Below, piece after piece: positions 2,983-56,917 of a DNA stretch of 64,000 bases. The stretch is taken from assembly GCF_003991155.1 (NCBI RefSeq), contig NZ_CP031293.1; one strand, given 5' to 3'. A model generated the notes under the pieces. The model was not told the DNA's origin. It saw only the letters and a list, made by a program, of their open reading frames with translations, and did not search any database. Within the stretch, counting starts at the first letter, position 1. Every line of letters starts with the position of its first letter. The stretch is from Escherichia coli. GTDB lineage: Bacteria > Pseudomonadota > Gammaproteobacteria > Enterobacterales > Enterobacteriaceae. The translations under genes were made by a program, and so were the position numbers.

Positions 2983-5109
2983 ATGAATATTGCCGCCAGT
3001 AGTGAACTGGTATCCCGACTTTCTACTCATCGCCGCGTGGTGGCGTTGGGAGATACTGATTTTACGGACGTCGCGGCAGTCGTCATTACCGCTGCGGATA
3101 GTCGCAGTGGCATTCTTGCGTTGCTTAAGCGCACCGGTTTTCATCTACCGGTGTTTTTGTATTCCGAACATACTGTTGAATTACCTGCGGGCGTTACGGC
3201 GGTAATCAACGGCAACGAGCAGCAGTGGCTGGAGCTGGAATCCGCAGCCTGTCAGTATGAAGAGAATTTGCTGCCACCGTTTTATGACACGCTGACGCAG
3301 TACGTTGAGATGGGTAATAGCACCTTTGCTTGCCCTGGACATCAACATGGTGCGTTCTTTAAAAAGCATCCTGCCGGACGCCATTTTTACGATTTCTTTG
3401 GCGAGAACATCTTTCGCGCCGATATGTGTAACGCTGACGTAAAATTGGGCGATCTGCTTATTCATGAAGGATCGGCGAAAGATGCGCAGAAATTTGCAGC
3501 CAAAGTCTTTCATGCCGATAAAACCTATTTTGTGCTGAACGGCACATCGGCAGCGAATAAAGTGGTGACGAATGCGCTGTTAACGCGTGGCGATCTGGTG
3601 CTCTTCGACCGTAACAACCATAAGTCGAATCATCACGGCGCGTTGATTCAGGCGGGGGCGACGCCGGTCTATCTGGAAGCTTCACGTAACCCGTTTGGTT
3701 TCATTGGCGGTATTGATGCGCACTGTTTTAATGAAGAGTATCTGCGCCAGCAAATTCGCGACGTTGCGCCAGAAAAAGCCGACCTGCCGCGCCCGTTTCG
3801 CCTGGCGATTATTCAGCTGGGAACCTATGACGGCACTGTCTATAACGCCCGTCAGGTGATCGATACCGTTGGGCATCTGTGTGATTACATTCTGTTTGAT
3901 TCCGCGTGGGTCGGTTACGAACAGTTTATCCCGATGATGGCGGATAGCTCGCCGCTGCTGTTAGAACTTAACGAAAACGATCCGGGGATCTTTGTGACCC
4001 AGTCGGTGCACAAACAGCAGGCGGGATTCTCACAGACGTCGCAGATCCATAAAAAAGATAACCATATCCGTGGACAGGCGCGTTTTTGCCCGCATAAGCG
4101 TTTGAATAATGCCTTTATGCTCCATGCTTCTACCAGCCCGTTCTATCCGCTGTTCGCCGCCCTGGACGTTAACGCCAAAATTCATGAAGGGGAGAGTGGG
4201 CGTCGGCTGTGGGCTGAGTGCGTTGAGTTGGGTATTGAGTCGCGCAAGGCTATTCTTGCGCGCTGTAAGCTGTTCCGCCCGTTTATCCCGCCTGTTGTTG
4301 ATGGCAAATTGTGGCAGGATTATCCGACGTCAGTGTTAGCCAGCGACCGCCGTTTTTTCAGTTTTGAGCCGGGGGCGAAGTGGCACGGCTTTGAAGGATA
4401 TGCCGCGGATCAGTATTTTGTTGATCCGTGCAAGCTGTTACTCACCACGCCGGGTATCGATGCCGAAACCGGCGAATATAGCGATTTTGGCGTTCCAGCG
4501 ACGATTCTGGCGCACTATCTGCGTGAGAACGGCATTGTGCCGGAGAAGTGCGATCTCAACTCCATTCTGTTCTTATTAACTCCGGCGGAAAGCCACGAGA
4601 AGCTGGCACAACTGGTGGCGATGCTGGTGCAGTTTGAACAGCATATTGAGGATGATTCGCCGCTGGCTGAGGTGTTGCCGAGCGTTTATAACAAATATCC
4701 GGTGCGCTATCGCGACTACACCCTGCGCCAGTTGTGTCAGGAGATGCACGATTTGTATGTCAGTTTCGACGTCAAAGACCTACAAAAAGCGATGTTCCGC
4801 CAGCAGAGTTTCCCGTCAGTGGTGATGAATCCCCAGGATGCGCATAGCGCTTATATTCGCGGTGAAGTGGAGTTGGTGCGGATTCGTGATGCCGAAGGGC
4901 GAATTGCGGCAGAAGGGGCGTTGCCTTATCCACCTGGCGTGCTTTGCGTGGTACCCGGGGAAGTCTGGGGTGGGGCGGTTCAACGTTATTTCCTTGCGCT
5001 GGAAGAAGGCGTGAATTTGTTGCCGGGATTTTCGCCGGAGTTGCAAGGTGTCTATAGCGAAACCGATGCGAATGGCATGAAACGGTTGTACGGTTATGTG
5101 TTGAAGTAA
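2983..5109 (+). CDS. speC: Ornithine decarboxylase, constitutive
   Basis: 708-aa ORF; full-length match to the Orn/Lys/Arg decarboxylase (fold I PLP) family, ending '...GMKRLYGYVLK'. Confidence 0.93.
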   Translation: MNIAASSELVSRLSTHRRVVALGDTDFTDVAAVVITAADSRSGILALLKRTGFHLPVFLYSEHTVELPAGVTAVINGNEQQWLELESAACQYEENLLPPFYDTLTQYVEMGNSTFACPGHQHGAFFKKHPAGRHFYDFFGENIFRADMCNADVKLGDLLIHEGSAKDAQKFAAKVFHADKTYFVLNGTSAANKVVTNALLTRGDLVLFDRNNHKSNHHGALIQAGATPVYLEASRNPFGFIGGIDAHCFNEEYLRQQIRDVAPEKADLPRPFRLAIIQLGTYDGTVYNARQVIDTVGHLCDYILFDSAWVGYEQFIPMMADSSPLLLELNENDPGIFVTQSVHKQQAGFSQTSQIHKKDNHIRGQARFCPHKRLNNAFMLHASTSPFYPLFAALDVNAKIHEGESGRRLWAECVELGIESRKAILARCKLFRPFIPPVVDGKLWQDYPTSVLASDRRFFSFEPGAKWHGFEGYAADQYFVDPCKLLLTTPGIDAETGEYSDFGVPATILAHYLRENGIVPEKCDLNSILFLLTPAESHEKLAQLVAMLVQFEQHIEDDSPLAEVLPSVYNKYPVRYRDYTLRQLCQEMHDLYVSFDVKDLQKAMFRQQSFPSVVMNPQDAHSAYIRGEVELVRIRDAEGRIAAEGALPYPPGVLCVVPGEVWGGAVQRYFLALEEGVNLLPGFSPELQGVYSETDANGMKRLYGYVLK

Positions 5110-5112
5110 GAA

Positions 5113-5149
5113 TAAAAAAACGGGTCACCTTCTGGCGACCCGTTTTTCT
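5113..5149. terminator. Bidirectional intrinsic terminator between convergent speC and nupG
   Basis: 'aaaaaaacgggtcacc ttctg gcgacccgtttttc': GC stem flanked by an A-run and a T-run. Confidence 0.65.
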
Positions 5150-5157
5150 TTGCGTAA

Positions 5158-6414
5158 TTAGTGGCTAACCGTCTGTGTACCTGTCGGGACACGAACGTGT
5201 TTATATTTGAACATCGCCATGAACGCGAAGGCCAGAACCACGGAGTAACCTGCGAAAATCAGCCATACGGTCTGCCAGTCGGTAATGCCGTTTTGGGTGT
5301 ACATCTCAACCACTTTACCGCTCACGATGCCGCCGAGGATACAGCCGAAGCCGTTGGTCATCATCAGGAACATCCCCTGCGCGCTGGCGCGAATTGCCGG
5401 GCTAACTTCTTTTTCGACAAACACCGAACCAGAGATGTTGAAGAAGTCGAATGCGCAACCGTAAACGATCATCGACAGTACCAGCAGTACAGTACCGAAC
5501 GGAGTCGGGTCGCCGTAAGCAAACAGAGCAAAACGCAGGATCCACGCCACAATACTGATCATCATTACGTTCTTAATACCGTAGCGGCTTAAGAAGAACG
5601 GGATGGTCAGAATGAACAGGGTTTCAGAGATCTGCGAAATCGACATGATGATTGACGCATGCTGCACGATGAAGCTGCTGGCAAACATCGGATCTTTGTC
5701 GAAGCTGTGCAGGAAGGTATTACCGAACATGTTGGTAATCTGCAGTTCCGCGCCCAGCAGCATTGAGAAGATGAAGAAGATTGCCATACGCTTGTTTTTA
5801 AACAGAGCGAATGCATCGAGGCCCAGCAGGGTTGTCCAGCTCTGATTCGCTTGCTGTTTAGCAACCGGAATATGCGGCAGAGTCAGGGTAAACAGAACCA
5901 GAATGGCGGAAAGCGCTGCGCCAATATACAGCTGCATGTGGCTTAATTCGAAGCCGGACAGGCTCACCACCCACATTGCCATGATAAAGCCGATGGTGCC
6001 CCAGATACGGATTGGCGGGAAGTCAGTAACGATATCCATCCCGGCATTTTGCAGGCGATAGTAAGAGATGGTGTTGATTAACCCAAGCGTTGGCATATAA
6101 GCAAACGAGTTAATCAATATCACAAGGAACATCGCCTCCGGCGTAGTGACCTCTGCCGCCATGAACAGCGTGATAGCGCCAATGGTGTGGCAAATGGCAT
6201 AGACCCATTTCGCACTTAACCATTTGTCGGCCACAATCCCCAGCAGCGCAGGCATAAAGACCGCGGCGATACCCAGTGAACTATAAACTGCGCCAATAGA
6301 AGCACCGTCAAACTTCAGGGTAACAAACATATAGGAGCCGAGGGTCGTCAGCCAACTTCCCCACAGACAGAACTGCAGAAAAGAGAGGATTTTCAGCTGC
6401 AGCTTAAGATTCAT
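5158..6414 (-). CDS. nupG: Nucleoside:H+ symporter NupG
   Basis: Translation from the internal ATG begins 'MNLKLQLKILSFLQFCLWGSWLTTLGSYMF' (418 aa); MFS transporter. Confidence 0.93.
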   Translation of the reverse strand: MNLKLQLKILSFLQFCLWGSWLTTLGSYMFVTLKFDGASIGAVYSSLGIAAVFMPALLGIVADKWLSAKWVYAICHTIGAITLFMAAEVTTPEAMFLVILINSFAYMPTLGLINTISYYRLQNAGMDIVTDFPPIRIWGTIGFIMAMWVVSLSGFELSHMQLYIGAALSAILVLFTLTLPHIPVAKQQANQSWTTLLGLDAFALFKNKRMAIFFIFSMLLGAELQITNMFGNTFLHSFDKDPMFASSFIVQHASIIMSISQISETLFILTIPFFLSRYGIKNVMMISIVAWILRFALFAYGDPTPFGTVLLVLSMIVYGCAFDFFNISGSVFVEKEVSPAIRASAQGMFLMMTNGFGCILGGIVSGKVVEMYTQNGITDWQTVWLIFAGYSVVLAFAFMAMFKYKHVRVPTGTQTVSH

Positions 6415-6615
6415 GTTAATTTCCTCACATCGTGATGCGGATGAGTGTTTGAAAAAGCACATTTGACCGTGCGAGATGATGGGATTCTATCAACTTCGCG
6501 GACTGGTTTTTTGTTACCTGTGGCAAATAATTGCAAACATTCCCAATTTGCAAAACGAAATTGTGATGTGGATAACATTTTTGCCCCTGAGCATCGTCAG
6601 GGGCGGTTAGTGGAA

Positions 6616-7722
<1,107 letters not shown>

Positions 7723-7759
7723 TTATGCAAGTTGCCGGAGGCGTGCTCCGGCACTGTTT

Positions 7760-8038
<279 letters not shown>

Positions 8039-33297: not shown

Positions 33298-33357
<60 letters not shown>

Positions 33358-33386
33358 GCCAGACACAGCGCCGTCAGGCGCTGTTG

Positions 33387-34606
<1,220 letters not shown>

Positions 34607-46433: not shown

Positions 46434-47513
46434 ATGTCTAAGATTTTTGATTTCGTAAAACCTGGCGTAATCACTGGTGATGACGTACAGAAAGTTTTCC
46501 AGGTAGCAAAAGAAAACAACTTCGCACTGCCAGCAGTAAACTGCGTCGGTACTGACTCCATCAACGCCGTGCTGGAAACCGCTGCTAAAGTTAAAGCGCC
46601 GGTTATCGTTCAGTTCTCCAACGGTGGTGCTTCCTTTATCGCTGGTAAAGGCGTGAAATCTGACGTTCCGCAGGGTGCTGCTATCCTGGGCGCGATCTCT
46701 GGTGCGCATCACGTTCACCAGATGGCTGAACATTATGGTGTTCCGGTTATCCTGCACACCGACCACTGCGCTAAGAAACTGCTGCCGTGGATCGACGGTC
46801 TGCTGGACGCGGGTGAAAAACACTTCGCAGCTACCGGCAAGCCGCTGTTCTCTTCTCACATGATCGACCTGTCTGAAGAATCTCTGCAAGAGAACATCGA
46901 AATCTGCTCTAAATACCTGGAGCGCATGTCCAAAATCGGCATGACTCTGGAAATCGAACTGGGTTGCACCGGTGGTGAAGAAGACGGCGTGGACAACAGC
47001 CACATGGACGCTTCTGCACTGTACACCCAGCCGGAAGACGTTGATTATGCGTATACCGAGCTGAGCAAAATCAGCCCGCGTTTCACCATCGCTGCGTCCT
47101 TCGGTAACGTACACGGTGTTTACAAGCCGGGTAACGTTGTTCTGACTCCGACCATCCTGCGCGACTCTCAGGAATATGTTTCTAAGAAACACAACCTGCC
47201 GCACAACAGCCTGAACTTCGTATTCCACGGTGGTTCCGGTTCTACTGCTCAGGAAATCAAAGACTCCGTAAGCTACGGCGTAGTGAAAATGAACATCGAT
47301 ACCGATACCCAATGGGCAACCTGGGAAGGTGTTCTGAACTACTACAAAGAAAACGAAGCTTACCTGCAAGGCCAGCTGGGCAACCCGAAAGGCGAAGATC
47401 AGCCGAACAAGAAATACTACGATCCGCGCGTATGGCTGCGTGCCGGTCAGACTTCGATGATCGCTCGTCTGGAAAAAGCATTCCAGGAACTGAACGCGAT
47501 CGACGTTCTGTAA
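46434..47513 (+). CDS. fbaA: Fructose-bisphosphate aldolase class II
   Basis: 359 aa from 'MSKIFDFVKPGVITGDDVQKVFQVAKENNFALPAVNCVG'. Confidence 0.97.
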   Translation: MSKIFDFVKPGVITGDDVQKVFQVAKENNFALPAVNCVGTDSINAVLETAAKVKAPVIVQFSNGGASFIAGKGVKSDVPQGAAILGAISGAHHVHQMAEHYGVPVILHTDHCAKKLLPWIDGLLDAGEKHFAATGKPLFSSHMIDLSEESLQENIEICSKYLERMSKIGMTLEIELGCTGGEEDGVDNSHMDASALYTQPEDVDYAYTELSKISPRFTIAASFGNVHGVYKPGNVVLTPTILRDSQEYVSKKHNLPHNSLNFVFHGGSGSTAQEIKDSVSYGVVKMNIDTDTQWATWEGVLNYYKENEAYLQGQLGNPKGEDQPNKKYYDPRVWLRAGQTSMIARLEKAFQELNAIDVL

Positions 47514-47536
47514 GATATTCCTTTCTGCTTATCTCA

Positions 47537-47562
47537 AGGCCCGCTCTGCGGGTCTTTTTTTC
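47537..47562 (+). terminator. Intrinsic terminator after fbaA
   Basis: 'aggcccgctctgcgggtctttttttc'. Confidence 0.65.
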
Positions 47563-47703
47563 GCCAAAAGCAAGGTGATACAGATGAGAAATCTGTGATC
47601 TATTTGGCAAAATTATGCTTTATTGTTTACCCTTGTCAGACTGCCCGTCATAAGGCGGCGGAGTGTATTTCTCCATTTTGAGTCAGTTGAAAAGGAATAT
47701 TGA

Positions 47704-48564
<861 letters not shown>

Positions 48565-48702
48565 TCAACGCTGAGGCCAGATAATACTCTCTGGCCTCTC
48601 TCTTATTAGTTTTTCTGATTGCCAATTAATATTATCAATTTCCGCTAATAACAATCCCGCGATATAGTCTCTGCATCAGATACTTAATTCGGAATATCCA
48701 AC

Positions 48703-49338
48703 GTGTTTTCTTATTACTTTCAAGGTCTTGCACTTGGCGCAGCTATGATCCTACCGCTCGGTCCACAAAATGCTTTTGTGATGAATCAGGGCATTCGTCG
48801 TCAGTACCACATTATGATTGCCTTACTTTGTGCTATCAGCGATTTGGTCCTGATTTGTGCGGGGATTTTTGGTGGCAGCGCGTTATTGATGCAGTCGCCG
48901 TGGTTGCTGGCGCTGGTCACCTGGGGCGGCGTAGCCTTCTTGCTGTGGTATGGTTTTGGCGCTTTTAAAACAGCAATGAGCAGTAACATTGAGTTAGCCA
49001 GTGCCGAAGTCCTGAAACAAGGCAGATGGAAAATTATCGCCACCATGTTGGCAGTGACCTGGCTGAATCCGCATGTTTACCTGGATACTTTTGTTGTGCT
49101 GGGCAGCCCTGGCGGGCAACTTGATGTGGAACCAAAACGTTGGTTTGCGCTCGGAACAATTAGCGCCTCTTTCCTGTGGTTCTTTGGTCTGGCTATTCTC
49201 GCAGCCTGGCTGGCACCGCGCCTGCGCACGGCAAAATCACAGCGCATTATCAATCTGGTAGTGGGATGTGTTATGTGGTTTATTGCCTTGCAGCTGGCGA
49301 GAGACGGTATTGCTCATGCACAAGCCTTGTTCAGTTAG
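48703..49338 (+). CDS. argO: Arginine exporter (LysE family)
   Basis: 211 aa from a GTG start '[34 protein letters not shown]'. Confidence 0.93.
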
Positions 49339-49430
49339 GCGCTATCTGATGGAAAAATAAAACAGAGGCGCTAAGCTTGCCTCCAGAGGTCCTGAATTTT
49401 GGGCAAGTCAATTAACACGGAGAGACTAAC

Positions 49431-50171
49431 GTGAAGTTCAAAGTTATCGCCCTGGCGGCATTAATGGGTATTAGCGGGATGGCAGCGCAGGCTAACGAAT
49501 TGCCGGATGGACCGCATATTGTCACCTCCGGTACGGCAAGCGTGGATGCGGTGCCAGACATTGCCACTCTTGCGATTGAAGTTAACGTGGCCGCGAAGGA
49601 TGCCGCTACTGCCAAGAAACAGGCAGATGAGCGCGTCGCACAATACATTTCCTTCCTTGAGCTCAATCAGATCGCGAAAAAAGATATCAGCTCAGCGAAC
49701 TTACGCACTCAGCCAGATTATGATTATCAGGATGGTAAAAGTATCCTGAAAGGCTACCGCGCAGTGAGAACGGTGGAAGTCACGCTCCGTCAGTTAGACA
49801 AACTGAATTCCTTGCTGGACGGCGCGCTAAAGGCGGGTCTTAACGAAATTCGTTCTGTGTCGCTGGGCGTGGCGCAGCCGGATGCCTATAAAGACAAAGC
49901 GCGTAAGGCAGCGATTGATAACGCGATTCATCAGGCGCAGGAACTGGCGAATGGCTTTAATCGCAAACTCGGGCCGGTATATAGCGTGCGTTATCATGTT
50001 TCCAACTATCAGCCCAGCCCAATGGTGCGGATGATGAAAGCTGATGCTGCACCGGTGTCCGCACAGGAAACTTACGAGCAGGCCGCTATTCAGTTTGATG
50101 ATCAGGTCGATGTAGTCTTCCAGTTAGAACCTGTGGATCAACCCCCCGCTAAAACACCTGCTGCACATTAA
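49431..50171 (+). CDS. yggE: DUF541/SIMPL-family periplasmic protein YggE
   Basis: 246 aa with signal peptide 'MKFKVIALAALMGISGMAAQA' (GTG start). Confidence 0.88.
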   Translation: MKFKVIALAALMGISGMAAQANELPDGPHIVTSGTASVDAVPDIATLAIEVNVAAKDAATAKKQADERVAQYISFLELNQIAKKDISSANLRTQPDYDYQDGKSILKGYRAVRTVEVTLRQLDKLNSLLDGALKAGLNEIRSVSLGVAQPDAYKDKARKAAIDNAIHQAQELANGFNRKLGPVYSVRYHVSNYQPSPMVRMMKADAAPVSAQETYEQAAIQFDDQVDVVFQLEPVDQPPAKTPAAH

Positions 50172-50328
50172 TACTTGTAGCCCGACGTATTCGTCGGGCT
50201 AATGTCTTTACCCGATATTGTCTCCTTTTTCTGTAAAACCATGACGTAATCACCTATCTTTGCTCGCGGTTTCATCAAGGATAGGCTGACTGAAACGGTT
50301 AAGCGGACAAGGATGCGGGAGAGGGGGG

Positions 50329-51219
50329 ATGGACATTTTTATTTCGAAAAAGATGCGCAATTTCATTTTATTAGCGCAAACCAATAATATTGCCCGGGCG
50401 GCAGAAAAAATCCATATGACGGCTTCGCGATTTGGCAAAAGCATTGCCGCGCTGGAAGAACAAATTGGCTATACGCTATTTACCCGCAAAGATAATAATA
50501 TCAGCCTCAATAAAGCCGGACAGGAACTGTATCAAAAACTGTTCCCGGTTTATCAACGACTTTCTGCGATTGATAATGAAATCCATAACTCAGGACGTCG
50601 TTCACGAGAAATTGTGATAGGCATAGATAATACTTATCCGACCATTATTTTTGATCAGTTGATTAGTCTCGGAGATAAGTACGAAGGCGTGACCGCCCAG
50701 CCAGTTGAGTTCAGCGAAAATGGCGTTATCGATAATCTTTTTGACCGTCAGTTAGATTTTAATATCTCCCCACAGCATGTATCTGCACGAGTTCAGGAAC
50801 TGGAAAACCTGACTATCAGTGAACTACCGCCGCTGCGATTGGGCTTTCTCGTTTCTCGCCGTTATGAAGAGCGACAAGAGCTGCTTCAGGAGCTGCCCTG
50901 GCTACAAATGCGCTTTCAGAATCGGGCCAATTTCGAAGCAATGATTGATGCGAATATGCGTCCTTGTGGGATCAATCCCACCATTATTTATCGTCCCTAC
51001 AGTTTTATGGCCAAAATCAGCGCCGTGGAGCGGGAACATTTTCTGACGGTGATCCCGCATTTTGCCTGGCGACTGGTGAATCCGGCAACGCTGAAATATT
51101 TTGATGCGCTGCACAGACCGATGTATATGCAGGAATATCTTTATTCAATCAGAAATCATCGTTATACCGCCACGATGCTTCAGCATATTGCTGAAGATCG
51201 TGACGGGACAAACCATTAA
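50329..51219 (+). CDS. ygfI: LysR-family transcriptional regulator
   Basis: 296 aa; N-terminal wHTH '[32 protein letters not shown]'. Confidence 0.8.
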
Positions 51220-52310
51220 CCCAGCATCGATCCGGTTGCAATTAAATTACGGTGTAAGTCGAAGACGTGGCTAAGATCGTGGTGAATATGTCCGCCGGAC
51301 GCATTTTCCAGATAGCGATGCAGATAATCCCGACACATAGGATGTGCACAATGATCAATGGTGGTGCGGATAACGTTGTTATACGGATCCTGTGCGCCAA
51401 ATCCACTGACCGCTTCGCTCCATAAATAACGTGCCGCACGCAACATGGCGGCGTTCATAAACAGATCCATGCCAATGCCGAAGAAAAACGACAGGCGAGG
51501 GACGAAGCCATCAATTTTCAGCCCGGCGGAGATTGCTGCTTTGATGTACTCAATCCTATCGGCGAGCGTAAATGCTACCTGCTGCACGCAGTTGGCACCC
51601 GCTTCACCCATGTGGTAACTGCTGATACTGATGGTATTAAATCGCGGCATGTTGCCGGAACACCAGGCGATGATGTCTGCGATAATACGCATTGACGGTT
51701 TTGGCGGGTAAATATAGGTATTGCGGCAGAGGTACTCTTTGAGGATATCGTTCTGAATGGTGCCGGTCAGTTTATCGGATGTAACACCTTGCTCTTCTGC
51801 GGCGACGATATAAAACGCCAGTACTGGTAGCACTGCGCCATTCATGGTCATAGAAACCGACATTTTATCCAGCGGGATCTGGTCGAACAGGACTTTCATA
51901 TCTTCCACGGTGTCGATAGCGACGCCCGCTTTGCCGACGTCGCCCGCCACGCGTGGGTTATCGGAGTCGTAGCCTCGGTGGGCGGCAAGGTCAAACGCAA
52001 CGGAAAGACCTTTTTGCCCGGCGGCCAGGTTACGGCGATAAAAAGCGTTGGACTCTTTTGCTGTCGAGAAACCAGCATACTGACGGATGGTCCACGGTTG
52101 GGTGGTATACATAGTGGCACGCGGGCCACGAACGTAGGGTGGCAAACCAGGAAGAGTACCCGTCACCTCCAGATTATCGAGATCGGCTTCGGTATACAGC
52201 GGCTTGATAGCGATCCCTTCCGCGGTTTGCTGAACCAGCGAGTCGACAGTTTTCTCCCGACGGCTCAATTCATTGTTGGCAAGCTGTTGCCACACCAGCA
52301 CGTTAGACAT
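51216..52310 (-). pseudogene. scpA: Methylmalonyl-CoA mutase (ScpA/Sbm) 5' fragment fused to a short non-mutase tail; remnant of a deleted scpA-argK-scpB-scpC operon
   Basis: From '[44 protein letters not shown]...' through '...[11 protein letters not shown]' the ORF follows the MCM N-terminal barrel; it then switches to '...[46 protein letters not shown]' and stops 3 bp inside the convergent ygfI stop. Only about 320 of roughly 714 mutase codons are present, and no argK/scpB/scpC ORFs exist. Confidence 0.75.
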
Positions 52311-52512
52311 TATTTGCTCCGTAAAACGCAATCAAAGTGAGGGTATTTGCGCTTACGGTGAGCTTTTTACGTGGGTTTGTCGCCAGCAAAAAAATGCATT
52401 CAGACGTCGTTTTTTGCCGCCTGAGATTTGTCTATTTTGTAATGTGATTCAAGGAATACAAAAAGAAGTGAGGATAACGCCTGATATGTGCTATCAGGCA
52501 TTATTTGATGGA

Positions 52513-53406
52513 TTAATCCTGACGAAGAACTTTGTGACCATAATCGAGCAACGCATCAGTGACTTTACGCATCATGCGGCTTTCAGGAGCAAAGCGGTGC
52601 CAGTAGAGCATCCGGCGTTGGAATAGCCCTGGCGTTAAGTCAATCAGTTCGCCGCTGGCCAGCTCTTTCTCGATTTGCAGGTGCGGGATCATACAGCAGG
52701 TGGTGCCCTGACGAGCAAGTTGCACGAACGCTTCCGAAGAATTAACGATATGGCAGGGTACGCTGCCAGGAGGCAGATCGAAATTTTGCTGCAAAAAGGC
52801 CTGGTGCATATCGTCAAGATGGTCAAACGCGACCACTGGCGCTTTCAGTAATGCCGAACGCGTTACGCCGTTAGGGAAATATTTTTCGGCAAAAGGTTTT
52901 GAGCTGACGAACAGATAGTCGAGCGCACCGAGTTTATCGACAAGACAACTCGGCAGCGCCTGATGTTGAATACTCACTGCGCCGACCACTTCGCCGCGAC
53001 GCAGACGTTCCTGAGTGCGGGTTTCATCTTCTACCTGCAAGTTGAGGCGGATGGGCGAATCAGCCAACACAGGAGCCAGTGCCGGAAGCAACCACGTCGC
53101 CAGACTGTCGGCGTTGACCGCCAGTGAAAGCAGCAGCGGAGTCGAACCGGTTTGTTCATCGCCCAGCCACTCTTCTTCCAGCAGCTCCACCTGGCGTAGT
53201 AGCGCCAACAGTTTTTGCCCTTGTTCCGTCGGGCGCGGCGGTACGGTACGCACTAACAACGGCTGCCCGAACATATTTTCCAGTTGCTTAATGCGCTGTG
53301 AGACGGCTGATTGTGTAATGCACAGCTTTTGTGCCGCGCGCTCAAATCCTCGTTCACGTATCACCGCATCCAGTGCCTGTAATGTTCTGTAGTCCGGGCG
53401 TTTCAT
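52513..53406 (-). CDS. argP: LysR-family regulator ArgP (IciA)
   Basis: 297 aa from '[43 protein letters not shown]'. Confidence 0.95.
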
Positions 53407-53498
53407 TGCTGTTGTCTGCTCCTGGTAAATGCTTTTTCCTGCACTATGACACAATTTTGTGTCGGGTTGCATATACCGAAGCCGTTGGTGGGTAACAT

Positions 53499-53777
53499 TT
53501 GTATCAGTGGTTAACGCGCAGCTTAAAAGATCAGGGATTTGCGCTAATGCATTTCGCTCAGCGAGTTCGCGCCCTGGTTGTGTTGAATGGCGTGGCGTTA
53601 TTGCCTCAGTTTGCCTGTAAACAGGGGCTTGCGAACGGGGAACTGGTGCGCCTGTTTGCACCGTGGAGCGGCATACCCAGACCGTTGTATGCTTTACTTG
53701 CGGGGCGAAAGGGGATGCCCGCCATTGCGCGATATTTTATGGATGAGTTAACCACGCGGCTTGCCAACGGGGTCTGA
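53499..53777 (+). pseudogene. yqfE: LysR-family regulator C-terminal fragment (yqfE-like pseudogene)
   Basis: 92-codon ORF resembling only the C-terminal effector domain of a LysR regulator; no HTH; K-12 carries a pseudogene at this position. Confidence 0.4.
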
Positions 53778-53832
53778 ATCGCTTTTTTTGTATATAATGC
53801 GTGTGAAATTTCATACCACAGGCGAAACGATC

Positions 53833-54492
53833 ATGACGCAGGATGAATTGAAAAAAGCAGTAGGATGGGCGGCACTTCAGTATGTTCAGCTCGGCACCAT
53901 TGTTGGTGTAGGTACAGGTTCCACCGCCGCACACTTTATTGACGCACTCGGTACAATGAAAGGCCAGATTGAAGGGGCCGTTTCCAGTTCAGATGCTTCC
54001 ACTGAAAAACTGAAAAGCCTCGGCATTCACGTTTTTGATCTCAACGAAGTCGACAGCCTTGGCATCTACGTTGATGGCGCAGATGAAATCAACGGCCACA
54101 TGCAAATGATCAAAGGCGGCGGCGCGGCGCTGACCCGTGAAAAAATCATTGCTTCGGTTGCGGAAAAATTTATCTGTATTGCAGACGCTTCCAAGCAGGT
54201 TGATATTCTGGGCAAATTCCCGCTGCCAGTAGAAGTTATCCCGATGGCACGTAGTGCAGTGGCGCGCCAGCTGGTGAAACTGGGCGGTCGTCCGGAATAC
54301 CGTCAGGGCGTAGTGACCGATAACGGCAACGTGATCCTCGACGTCCACGGCATGGAAATCCTTGACCCGATAGCGATGGAAAACGCCATAAATGCGATTC
54401 CTGGCGTGGTGACTGTTGGTTTGTTTGCTAACCGTGGCGCGGACGTTGCGCTGATTGGCACACCTGACGGTGTCAAAACTATTGTGAAATGA
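53833..54492 (+). CDS. rpiA: Ribose-5-phosphate isomerase A
   Basis: 219 aa from '[39 protein letters not shown]'; a 'tatataat' -10-like element lies about 35 bp upstream. Confidence 0.96.
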
Positions 54493-54747
54493 TCTGACGG
54501 GGGAACCTCCCCCGTTAAAAAAATTCTCTTCATTAAATTTGGTGACATGTGTCACGTTTTTACCTGGCAATTGTCGATTGCTCTAAATAAATCCTCTAAA
54601 CCAGCATATTCATCCAAGAAATACTTTTGCGTGATATTTCCTCAACATAGCGACGCAAACGTTCATATTGCCGCAATATTATTTTTTGATATGTTGAAAG
54701 GCGGATGCAAATCCGCACACAACATTTCAAAAGACAGGATTGGGTAA

Positions 54748-55980
54748 ATGGCAAAGGTATCGCTGGAGAAAGACAAGATTAAGTTTCTGCTGGTAGAAGG
54801 CGTGCACCAAAAGGCGCTGGAAAGCCTTCGTGCAGCTGGTTACACCAACATCGAATTTCACAAAGGCGCGCTGGATGATGAACAATTAAAAGAATCCATC
54901 CGCGATGCCCACTTCATCGGCCTGCGATCCCGTACCCATCTGACTGAAGACGTGATCAACGCCGCAGAAAAACTGGTCGCTATTGGCTGTTTCTGTATAG
55001 GAACAAACCAGGTTGATCTGGATGCGGCGGCAAAGCGCGGGATCCCGGTATTTAACGCACCGTTCTCAAATACGCGCTCTGTTGCGGAGCTGGTGATTGG
55101 CGAACTGCTGCTGCTATTGCGCGGCGTGCCGGAAGCCAATGCTAAAGCGCATCGTGGCGTGTGGAACAAACTGGCGGCGGGTTCTTTTGAAGCGCGCGGC
55201 AAAAAGCTGGGTATCATCGGCTACGGTCATATTGGTACGCAATTGGGCATTCTGGCTGAATCGCTGGGAATGTATGTTTACTTTTATGATATTGAAAACA
55301 AACTGCCGCTGGGCAACGCCACTCAGGTACAGCATCTTTCTGACCTGCTGAATATGAGCGATGTGGTGAGTCTGCATGTACCAGAGAATCCGTCCACCAA
55401 AAATATGATGGGCGCGAAAGAGATTTCGCTAATGAAACCCGGCTCGCTGCTGATTAATGCTTCGCGCGGTACTGTGGTGGATATTCCAGCGCTGTGTGAC
55501 GCGCTGGCGAGCAAACATCTGGCAGGGGCGGCAATCGACGTATTCCCGACGGAACCGGCGACCAATAGCGATCCATTTACCTCTCCGCTGTGTGAATTCG
55601 ACAATGTCCTTCTGACGCCACACATTGGTGGTTCGACTCAGGAAGCGCAGGAGAATATCGGTCTGGAAGTTGCGGGTAAATTGATCAAGTATTCTGATAA
55701 TGGTTCAACGCTCTCTGCGGTGAACTTCCCGGAAGTCTCGCTGCCACTGCACGGTGGTCGTCGTCTGATGCACATCCACGAAAACCGTCCGGGTGTGCTG
55801 ACTGCGCTCAACAAAATTTTTGCCGAGCAGGGCGTCAACATCGCCGCGCAATATCTGCAAACTTCCGCCCAGATGGGTTATGTAGTTATTGATATTGAAG
55901 CCGACGAAGACGTTGCCGAAAAAGCGCTGCAGGCAATGAAAGCTATTCCGGGTACCATTCGCGCCCGTCTGCTGTACTAA
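54748..55980 (+). CDS. serA: D-3-phosphoglycerate dehydrogenase
   Basis: 410 aa 'MAKVSLEKDKIKFLLVEGVHQKALESLRAAGYTNIEFHKGALDDEQL'. Confidence 0.97.
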   Translation: MAKVSLEKDKIKFLLVEGVHQKALESLRAAGYTNIEFHKGALDDEQLKESIRDAHFIGLRSRTHLTEDVINAAEKLVAIGCFCIGTNQVDLDAAAKRGIPVFNAPFSNTRSVAELVIGELLLLLRGVPEANAKAHRGVWNKLAAGSFEARGKKLGIIGYGHIGTQLGILAESLGMYVYFYDIENKLPLGNATQVQHLSDLLNMSDVVSLHVPENPSTKNMMGAKEISLMKPGSLLINASRGTVVDIPALCDALASKHLAGAAIDVFPTEPATNSDPFTSPLCEFDNVLLTPHIGGSTQEAQENIGLEVAGKLIKYSDNGSTLSAVNFPEVSLPLHGGRRLMHIHENRPGVLTALNKIFAEQGVNIAAQYLQTSAQMGYVVIDIEADEDVAEKALQAMKAIPGTIRARLLY

Positions 55981-56000
55981 ATCCCCTTCTCTGAAAATCA

Positions 56001-56032
56001 ACGGGCAGGTCACTGACTTGCCCGTTTTTTTA
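56001..56032 (+). terminator. Intrinsic terminator after serA
   Basis: 'acgggcaggtcactgacttgcccgttttttta'. Confidence 0.65.
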
Positions 56033-56174
56033 TCCCTTCTCCACACCGTTGCCGCATTGCGCATTCTACTTTGCGAGTCTGCTCCAGAAAATAAATCAAA
56101 GTCAGATCAATGCGTTGTGTTTATTTAATGGGGATTTACGATGGCAGGGCAGCATGGGGCTGTAACGGTAAAGC

Positions 56175-56320
56175 CCTCACCGAAGCGAGGGCTTGAAGGA
56201 GAAGGGTTATGATGCGACTTGTCATCATACTGATTGTACTGTTACTCATAAGTTTCCCAGCTTATTAACAGTCAGTCTCAGGGGAGGAGTCATCCTCCCT
56301 TACCCTTACTCACTAAATTA
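56175..56320 (-). ncRNA. sibC: SibC antisense RNA (antitoxin of ibsC); approximate boundaries
   Basis: Inferred from the ibsC toxin ORF on the opposite strand and the flanking hairpins 'aagccctcaccgaagcgagggctt' and 'gggaggagtcatcctccc'; ends not determined. Confidence 0.4.
56209..56268 (+). CDS. ibsC: Type I toxin IbsC (19-aa hydrophobic peptide)
   Basis: Manual translation after SD 'aggaga': MMRLVIILIVLLLISFPAY*; lies in the serA-fau intergenic region where the K-12 ibsC/sibC locus sits. Confidence 0.75.
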   Translation: MMRLVIILIVLLLISFPAY

Positions 56321-56368
56321 GGTTAAAGAATCAACGATGTCAATCAGGGCGATGCAGGTGTGTCGCCC

Positions 56369-56917
56369 TCACCACTCCCAGACTTTCGACGGTGTAACCA
56401 CCGCAGGAAGAGGGATATCCCACTCTTCAACGGGGAGTTTTTCCACCAACTGACAATCATGCGCATAACCCACCGGTTGCATTTTATAGTGCTGCCAGTT
56501 TTGTAAGGTCCGATCATAAAAACCACCGCCCATTCCCAGGCGCTGACCGTACTCATCAAAGGCGACCAGCGGTGTGATCAACACGTCTAATCGGGAAAGG
56601 GGTAGCACGTCACGCACATCCAGTTTTGGCTCATGGATCTTCAACCTGTTCATCACCAGTTCGCTTTGCGGATGGTAGTTCAGGAACAGCAAATTACCGG
56701 CACTAAAGGGATGCAAAACTGGAAGATATACGCGCTTACCGGCGCGCCAGAGTTGTTCTATGAGTGGCTGGGTGTCGAGTTCGCCATCAAAAGAGAGGAA
56801 TACAGCGACCATATGTGCCATCACCACCGGAGGATAAGTCATCATCCGGGTAGCGGCTTGTTGACCCATTTCCTGCTGTTGTTCCGGCGTTAACGCACGA
56901 CGACGTTGCCGAATCAT
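56369..56917 (-). CDS. fau: 5-formyltetrahydrofolate cyclo-ligase
   Basis: 182 aa from 'MIRQRRRALTPEQQQEMGQQAATRMMTYPP'; directly downstream of ssrS on the same strand. Confidence 0.9.
   Translation of the reverse strand: MIRQRRRALTPEQQQEMGQQAATRMMTYPPVVMAHMVAVFLSFDGELDTQPLIEQLWRAGKRVYLPVLHPFSAGNLLFLNYHPQSELVMNRLKIHEPKLDVRDVLPLSRLDVLITPLVAFDEYGQRLGMGGGFYDRTLQNWQHYKMQPVGYAHDCQLVEKLPVEEWDIPLPAVVTPSKVWEW

Follow-up and report, generated by a model that had tools for sequence, protein, structure and literature searches.

The closest described system is the sbm ('sleeping beauty mutase') operon of Escherichia coli K-12, scpA-argK-scpB-scpC (b2917–b2920), which occupies the same locus, between argP and srsR (ygfI), as the open reading frame (ORF) analyzed here. 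In the window, by which we mean the whole stretch of 64,000 nucleotides that was analyzed, sequence identity to K-12 is ~96–97% over scpA nt 1–927 and over the ~139 nt at the 3' end of scpC, whereas scpA codons 310–330 and the stretch from scpA codon 340 to scpC codon 447 are missing, all of argK and scpB is gone, and no functional enzyme of the pathway is left. A second point of comparison is given by microhomology deletions that make in-frame fusions in the course of gene decay. As in those, one copy of a 10–15-bp repeat is kept at each junction, the locus is without mobile-element DNA, and nested deletions have recurred there. The mechanism is in no way unusual; all that stands out is that three successive deletions kept the frame, which is explained by a bias of the operon's repeats toward the same phase (see below). 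Finally, separate losses of the same operon, which also leave a truncated 'methylmalonyl-CoA mutase family protein', occur in MB51, in ES4 (a partial deletion), and in P0009 (NCBI, E. coli; longest contig 87,217 bp). These differ from the window's allele in having other breakpoints and in being rare (versus ~20% of genomes), and in MB51 the mechanism also differs, with an IS1 at the breakpoint.

The allele itself is genuine but unremarkable: it is common, and RefSeq already carries it as fragments of pseudogenes. Window positions 47300–56700 are identical to FDAARGOS_1284, in which PGAP annotates the sequence as two partial pseudogenes (I6K14_RS04015 and I6K14_RS24890), named 'methylmalonyl-CoA mutase family protein' and 'acetyl-CoA hydrolase', with equivalents in UTI89 and PMV-1. 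This RefSeq pair represents the same allele or junctions as the window (UTI89, PMV-1, and CFT073 share both junctions), treated as unrelated fragments, and the continuous in-frame ORF and a 63-bp deletion inside scpA are unrecorded. A full-text literature search found no published description of this deletion. The mention of 'methylmalonyl-CoA mutase' in a paper on canine ExPEC was discarded, since there it explains the gene name mcmA among listed virulence factors and does not concern this locus.

Positions 50300–53700 of the window were aligned to the K-12 MG1655 locus (NC_000913.3, 3058000–3069000). The alignment consists of three colinear pieces, with no residue left unassigned, and these define most of the features of the locus:

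50329–51219, plus strand: srsR (ygfI), convergent and intact, lacking one CAAGAG unit (6 bp, 2 aa) relative to K-12.
51216–52310, minus strand: fusion CDS, 364 aa plus stop (alignment to K-12, tblastn, Pfam).
51384–52310, minus strand: scpA codons 1–309 (K-12 numbering), colinear with K-12 (BLAST); piece i of the alignment runs from argP to scpA nt 927 and reaches down to 51384.
51384–51393, minus strand: junction 1, retained 10-bp direct-repeat copy ACAGGATCCG (three-track alignment).
51355–51393, minus strand: piece ii (window 51393–51355), a 39-nt scpA island between both deletions, K-12 scpA nt 981–1019 (BLAST, 100% over 39 nt).
51355–51369, minus strand: junction 2, retained copy of the 15-bp imperfect repeat CCGCACCACCATTGA (alignment to K-12).
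51216–51354, minus strand: scpC 3' end, last 46 codons plus stop, ~139 nt (BLAST, tblastn); with it begins piece iii, which runs from 51354 onward into srsR.
51981–52028, minus strand: repeats CTGGCCGCC (52020–52028) and CTTGCCGCC (51981–51989), bounding a 39-bp segment.
52311–52512, minus strand: region between argP and scpA, kept in the window and aligning colinearly with K-12 (BLAST).

The stretch from argP through scpA nt 927 aligns as one BLAST piece with 96.8% identity. In the program-made ORF list, the frame at 51216–52331 on the minus strand has 371 aa counted from a TTG, and these were the limits given in the preliminary description. The ORF does exist, but its true start is the K-12-equivalent ATG at 52310 (MSNV...) and not the TTG at 52331, which gives a product of 364 aa. 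Residues 1–318 of this product are ScpA (K-12 residues 1–309 plus 331–339), and residues 319–364 are the C-terminal 46 residues of ScpC (447–492), joined in frame. By tblastn, ScpA 1–343 matches window 52310–51345, and ScpC 443–492 matches 51368–51219 with 92% identity (E = 4.5e-26). The 46-aa tail (DHCAHPMC...SMLG) carries three substitutions relative to ScpC 447–492; its proposed derivation from the 3' end of scpC by an in-frame fusion agrees with the base-level alignment, and the boundary that had been placed at DHCAHPMC is exact. The ORF was also said to end inside the stop codon of the convergent ygfI, and such an overlap is indeed seen between its stop (TTA, plus strand 51216–51218) and that of srsR/ygfI (TAA, 51217–51219), as between scpC and ygfI in K-12. 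At the other end, the region upstream of the operon has been kept, with a putative promoter function.

The same alignment bears out the loss of most of the operon, which had been described as one deletion of about 4.5 kb. That figure was near in size, but there are two deletions, of 63 and 4,273 bp, with 4,336 bp missing, and the 63-bp deletion had been overlooked. At junction 1, the two copies in K-12 scpA, ACAGGACCCG and ACAGGATCCG, are 9/10 identical and 63 bp apart, and the deletion removes K-12 ScpA residues 310–330 (21 aa) in frame. At junction 2, the repeat CCGCACCACCATTGA in scpA and its counterpart CCGCACTATCATTGA in scpC are 13/15 identical, with CATTGA (51355–51360) as the exact shared core, and the 4,273-bp deletion leads from scpA codon 340 to scpC codon 447 with the frame kept. 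The breakpoints thus lie in direct repeats of which one copy is retained, as in short-direct-repeat deletions, and neither junction holds filler, IS sequence, or a target duplication, every base being that of K-12 scpA or scpC. With the full operon standing between argP and srsR in both K-12 and Ecol_545, and the breakpoints mapped, the ORF is a remnant derived by deletion.

Two other accounts of these junctions were considered. An assembly artefact or a deletion mediated by a mobile element is hardly credible: IS elements do figure in other sbm losses, as with the IS1 at the MB51 breakpoint, but here the same junctions recur in >1,100 independently finished genomes and are free of inserted DNA. 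We likewise give next to no weight to the reverse polarity, in which the short allele would be ancestral and the K-12-type operon would result from an insertion of argK-scpB-scpC together with an extension of the gene. The B2 lineage, to which the named carriers would belong, is usually seen as one of the early branches of E. coli, but no observation made here favours a gain. Truncated segments of two genes make up the ORF, and conservation of the full-length versions of these genes extends to human methylmalonyl-CoA mutase (MCM); the ORF is also missing domains essential to the family. Moreover, K-12 holds both repeat copies at both breakpoints, and full-length relatives of scpA are found in other genera.

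The distribution of the allele was surveyed in 5,426 complete E. coli genomes. Junction 1 (44-nt probe) was found in 1,110 of them and junction 2 (46-nt probe) in 1,108 (554 exact and 554 with one mismatch), the interior of the operon (K-12 locus 4000–8000) in 4,311, and a single place covering ≥80% of the 3.4-kb segment of the window in 1,140. The counts for junction 1 and the interior add up to 5,421, which is consistent with mutual exclusion, although as aggregate counts they are no per-genome proof. The allele is thereby present in about a fifth (~20%) of the complete genomes. Its carriers include 536, UTI89, CFT073, PMV-1, and, in a derivative form, E2348/69, and it is absent from K-12, O157, and Ecol_545. 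From their names, we take the five carriers to be phylogroup B2 strains. The allele appears to be lineage-specific, and it would have had a single origin. EV36, a laboratory K-12/K1 hybrid, carries it too. One of the ~1,110 junction-bearing places is on a record labelled as a plasmid, which may be a mislabelled replicon or a captured chromosomal segment.

The loss of coding content is extensive. K-12 ArgK and ScpB gave no tblastn match in the 64-kb window, and ScpA and ScpC gave none there beyond ScpA 1–343 and ScpC 443–492. This agrees with the earlier remark that no argK, scpB, or scpC ORFs are present (of scpC, only the last 50 residues are matched), and the missing genes are not found elsewhere within the 64-kb window, as they might be after a rearrangement. 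Nor is the ORF a complete gene under a different annotation, since Pfam covers only part of PF01642, at positions 1–291 of 512 (E = 1e-124) plus a 15-residue fragment (302–316). No match to the cobalamin-binding domain PF02310, and none for the ScpC tail, was found by Pfam in the 364-aa product. PF02310 is present in full-length relatives, and the equivalent region of K-12 ScpA is residues ~572–706. As to the acetyl-CoA hydrolase/transferase family of ScpC, the product holds only residues 447–492 of ~492 aa, without the N- and C-terminal CoA-transferase domains. Full-length K-12 ScpA aligns with human MCM over residues 6–707, and the junction-1 deletion takes its 21 residues from a stretch that is almost invariant between the two. 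The idea that the catalytic His of MCM is among these 21 residues was rejected, since by the 1req_A offset it would sit in the retained GYHMGE motif. With half of the catalytic barrel missing, no B12-binding domain, and no ArgK, scpB, or scpC partners, the fusion product is predicted, from its domain content, to be incapable of acting as a mutase. Because the barrel is truncated and the B12 domain, ArgK, the decarboxylase, and the CoA-transferase are missing, carriers would be unable to convert succinate to propionate by way of methylmalonyl-CoA.

The open frame could nevertheless be a retained, selected gene with a new structural, regulatory, or moonlighting role. This is suggested by an uninterrupted frame in the window as well as in each of the eight alleles read from complete genomes, by all three deletions (the two above and a 39-bp deletion found in most carriers) being in frame, by the upstream region being kept, and by PGAP treating a 351-aa form of the product, in at least one genome, as an ordinary protein (WP_000073273.1). 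The in-frame outcome, however, is to be expected. Among the short direct repeats of the K-12 operon (repeats of at least 9/10 or 13/15 identity), 65–76% are in phase versus 33%, an excess due to the repeats encoding the same peptide motifs with biased codons. Given this bias, the chance that three deletions all fall in frame is roughly 0.4, so there is no need to assume selection for an open frame. The same is illustrated by P0009, where an independent in-frame fusion joins ScpA residue 281 to ScpC residue 357 at the 9/10 repeat TCGGC(A/C)TGGA; since this junction differs from that of the window, in-frame scpA-scpC fusions arose at least twice.

Selective constraint was compared over 1,095 aligned nucleotides. 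The intact alleles of K-12 and Ecol_545 differ by 1 nonsynonymous and 18 synonymous changes (omega 0.02), whereas the window and K-12 differ by 15 and 24 (omega 0.18), and the omega values of five neighbouring genes between window and K-12 are 0–0.084. Pairs inside the deletion clade have dN/dS values of 0.17–0.76, which, as values below 1, speak for a retained gene. Against it, dN/dS is about ten-fold above that of intact alleles. Changes private to the deletion alleles comprise ~20 nonsynonymous to 24 synonymous, versus 1:18 in the intact ones (Fisher p = 0.0015), and those private to the window comprise 4–5 nonsynonymous to 1 synonymous. In addition, deletion and intact alleles have synonymous polymorphisms in common, with four-gamete patterns, which suggests that recombination imported already-purified variation into the deletion alleles. 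Constraint is thus clearly relaxed, with dN/dS several-fold to about ten-fold above intact alleles, although strict neutrality is not demonstrated and some residual selection may persist.

Further disabling mutations have accumulated among the carriers. The 39-bp segment at 51981–52019 is intact in the window and deleted in frame (13 aa) in ~85% of carriers. The deletion lies between CTGGCCGCC and CTTGCC(G/A)CC and occurs in two variants, with a GCCGCC junction in 417 genomes and a GCCACC junction in 528; the former count refers to matches at ≥80% coverage, which excludes 126 undeleted alleles that gave matches of 76%. UTI89, PMV-1, and CFT073 carry the deletion, and 536, D8, 8178, and E2348/69 retain the segment as the window does. 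The two junction variants, together with a Z135-like allele (P0010) that is without the deletion, suggest that it arose more than once. In E2348/69, an extra deletion has shortened both the scpC tail and srsR at their 3' ends. An isolate assembly (L012) carries a nonsense mutation, W73* (G218A), in an ORF otherwise identical to that of the window, and three assemblies (L015–L017) have a 1-bp frameshift in common. Only these four count as cases of a truncated protein, as two further ones (L013 and L014) are scaffolds with N-runs and were discarded.

The allele therefore combines relaxed constraint with further disabling mutations, as a pseudogene does, while omega is still <1. The natural nonsense and frameshift alleles, the removal of conserved sequence by the 39-bp and E2348/69 3' deletions, and a barrel that ends at position ~291 of 512 all weigh against a retained gene, and we judge a new role to be improbable. 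We place a similarly small chance on a related version, in which the 364/351-aa ScpA'-'ScpC product would be under partial purifying selection, either because the truncated barrel has taken on a new role or because its translation, as a spacer, affects the expression of the convergent regulator srsR, whose stop it overlaps; the points that can be cited for it are an ORF that is open in nearly all of the ~1,100 genomes and a clade omega of about 0.2–0.4. Our reading, held with high confidence, is that this ORF is a relic without function, left behind from the sbm operon by short-repeat deletions and now decaying.

On this relic reading, two deletions between short, in-phase direct repeats would have occurred in the ancestor of a large E. 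coli lineage, with the 63 bp inside scpA being removed either before or after the 4,273-bp scpA-scpC deletion. The anatomy of the junctions points to replication slippage or RecA-independent illegitimate recombination as the likely mechanism. Within each repeat pair, the two copies are translated in the same phase into the same short motif (QDP/QDP and RT(T/I)I(E/D)), and because of this the frame stays open across the two junctions as far as the native scpC stop. Of the mutase catalytic barrel, the resulting product keeps only the first ~57%, and it is without the B12-binding domain; the remnant is now decaying in different sublineages through in-frame deletions, nonsense and frameshift mutations, and an excess of amino-acid changes. 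With respect to the order of events, a contig from ENA (ERZ27238580, contig k111_23563, 3347–4752) has an scpA with the 63-bp deletion and without the 4,273-bp one, and the 137 bp that follow match common intact alleles exactly. It is possibly a natural intermediate or else a chimeric metagenome assembly; a form with junction 1 only was found in none of the 5,426 complete genomes.

The ORF is flanked by argO, yggE, and srsR (ygfI) on one side and by argP, rpiA, and serA on the other. In srsR, the indel near 50875 is the loss of one unit of the CAAGAG tandem duplication, and the gene has five amino-acid changes between window and K-12, with a dN/dS of 0.07 that is not above that of its neighbours. 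A decay of srsR along with the sbm operon was considered and is unsupported for the window strain, given this neighbour-like dN/dS. Elsewhere among carriers, srsR has two internal stops (pseudogene) in the Z135-7/C9 sublineage, as well as the 3' truncation in E2348/69. In the published work on SrsR/YgfI that was examined, scpA/sbm is not mentioned among its targets.

Some further observations concern the rest of the window. Window 1–33302 is identical to positions 1280–34581 of the FDAARGOS_1284 record (L018), so that a window coordinate there is the L018 coordinate minus 1,279. Relative to this otherwise identical genome, the window has an insertion of ~1,278 bp at 33303–34579, just downstream of tkt, which contains an ORF (33407–34387, minus strand, 326 aa) with a full-length match to the IS621 transposase 8wt6_A (E = 9.5e-218); we take IS621 to be an IS110-family 'bridge RNA' recombinase element. 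At ~39090–39263 (coordinates from L018, colinear after 34580), a partial 'fructose-bisphosphatase class II' pseudogene annotated by PGAP follows yggP, which suggests another deletion remnant in the cmtBA-yggP region. At window ~220–1760, a gene for a tyrosine-type integrase lies beside a tRNA-Phe gene in FDAARGOS_1284 (L018 1503–3041), and since the window is identical to that record there, its start probably lies at the margin of an island associated with tRNA-Phe.

The allele means that roughly one fifth of sequenced E. coli, including the extraintestinal pathogens CFT073, UTI89, and 536 and the EPEC strain E2348/69, would be without the cobalamin-dependent pathway from succinate to propionate. 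Metabolic models and propionate engineering based on K-12 would accordingly not be transferable to carrier strains. The two junctions provide a compact and easily assayed lineage marker, and the locus illustrates how a pseudogene can decay step by step through short-repeat deletions that stay in phase, and that an open in-frame fusion ORF need not mean selection.
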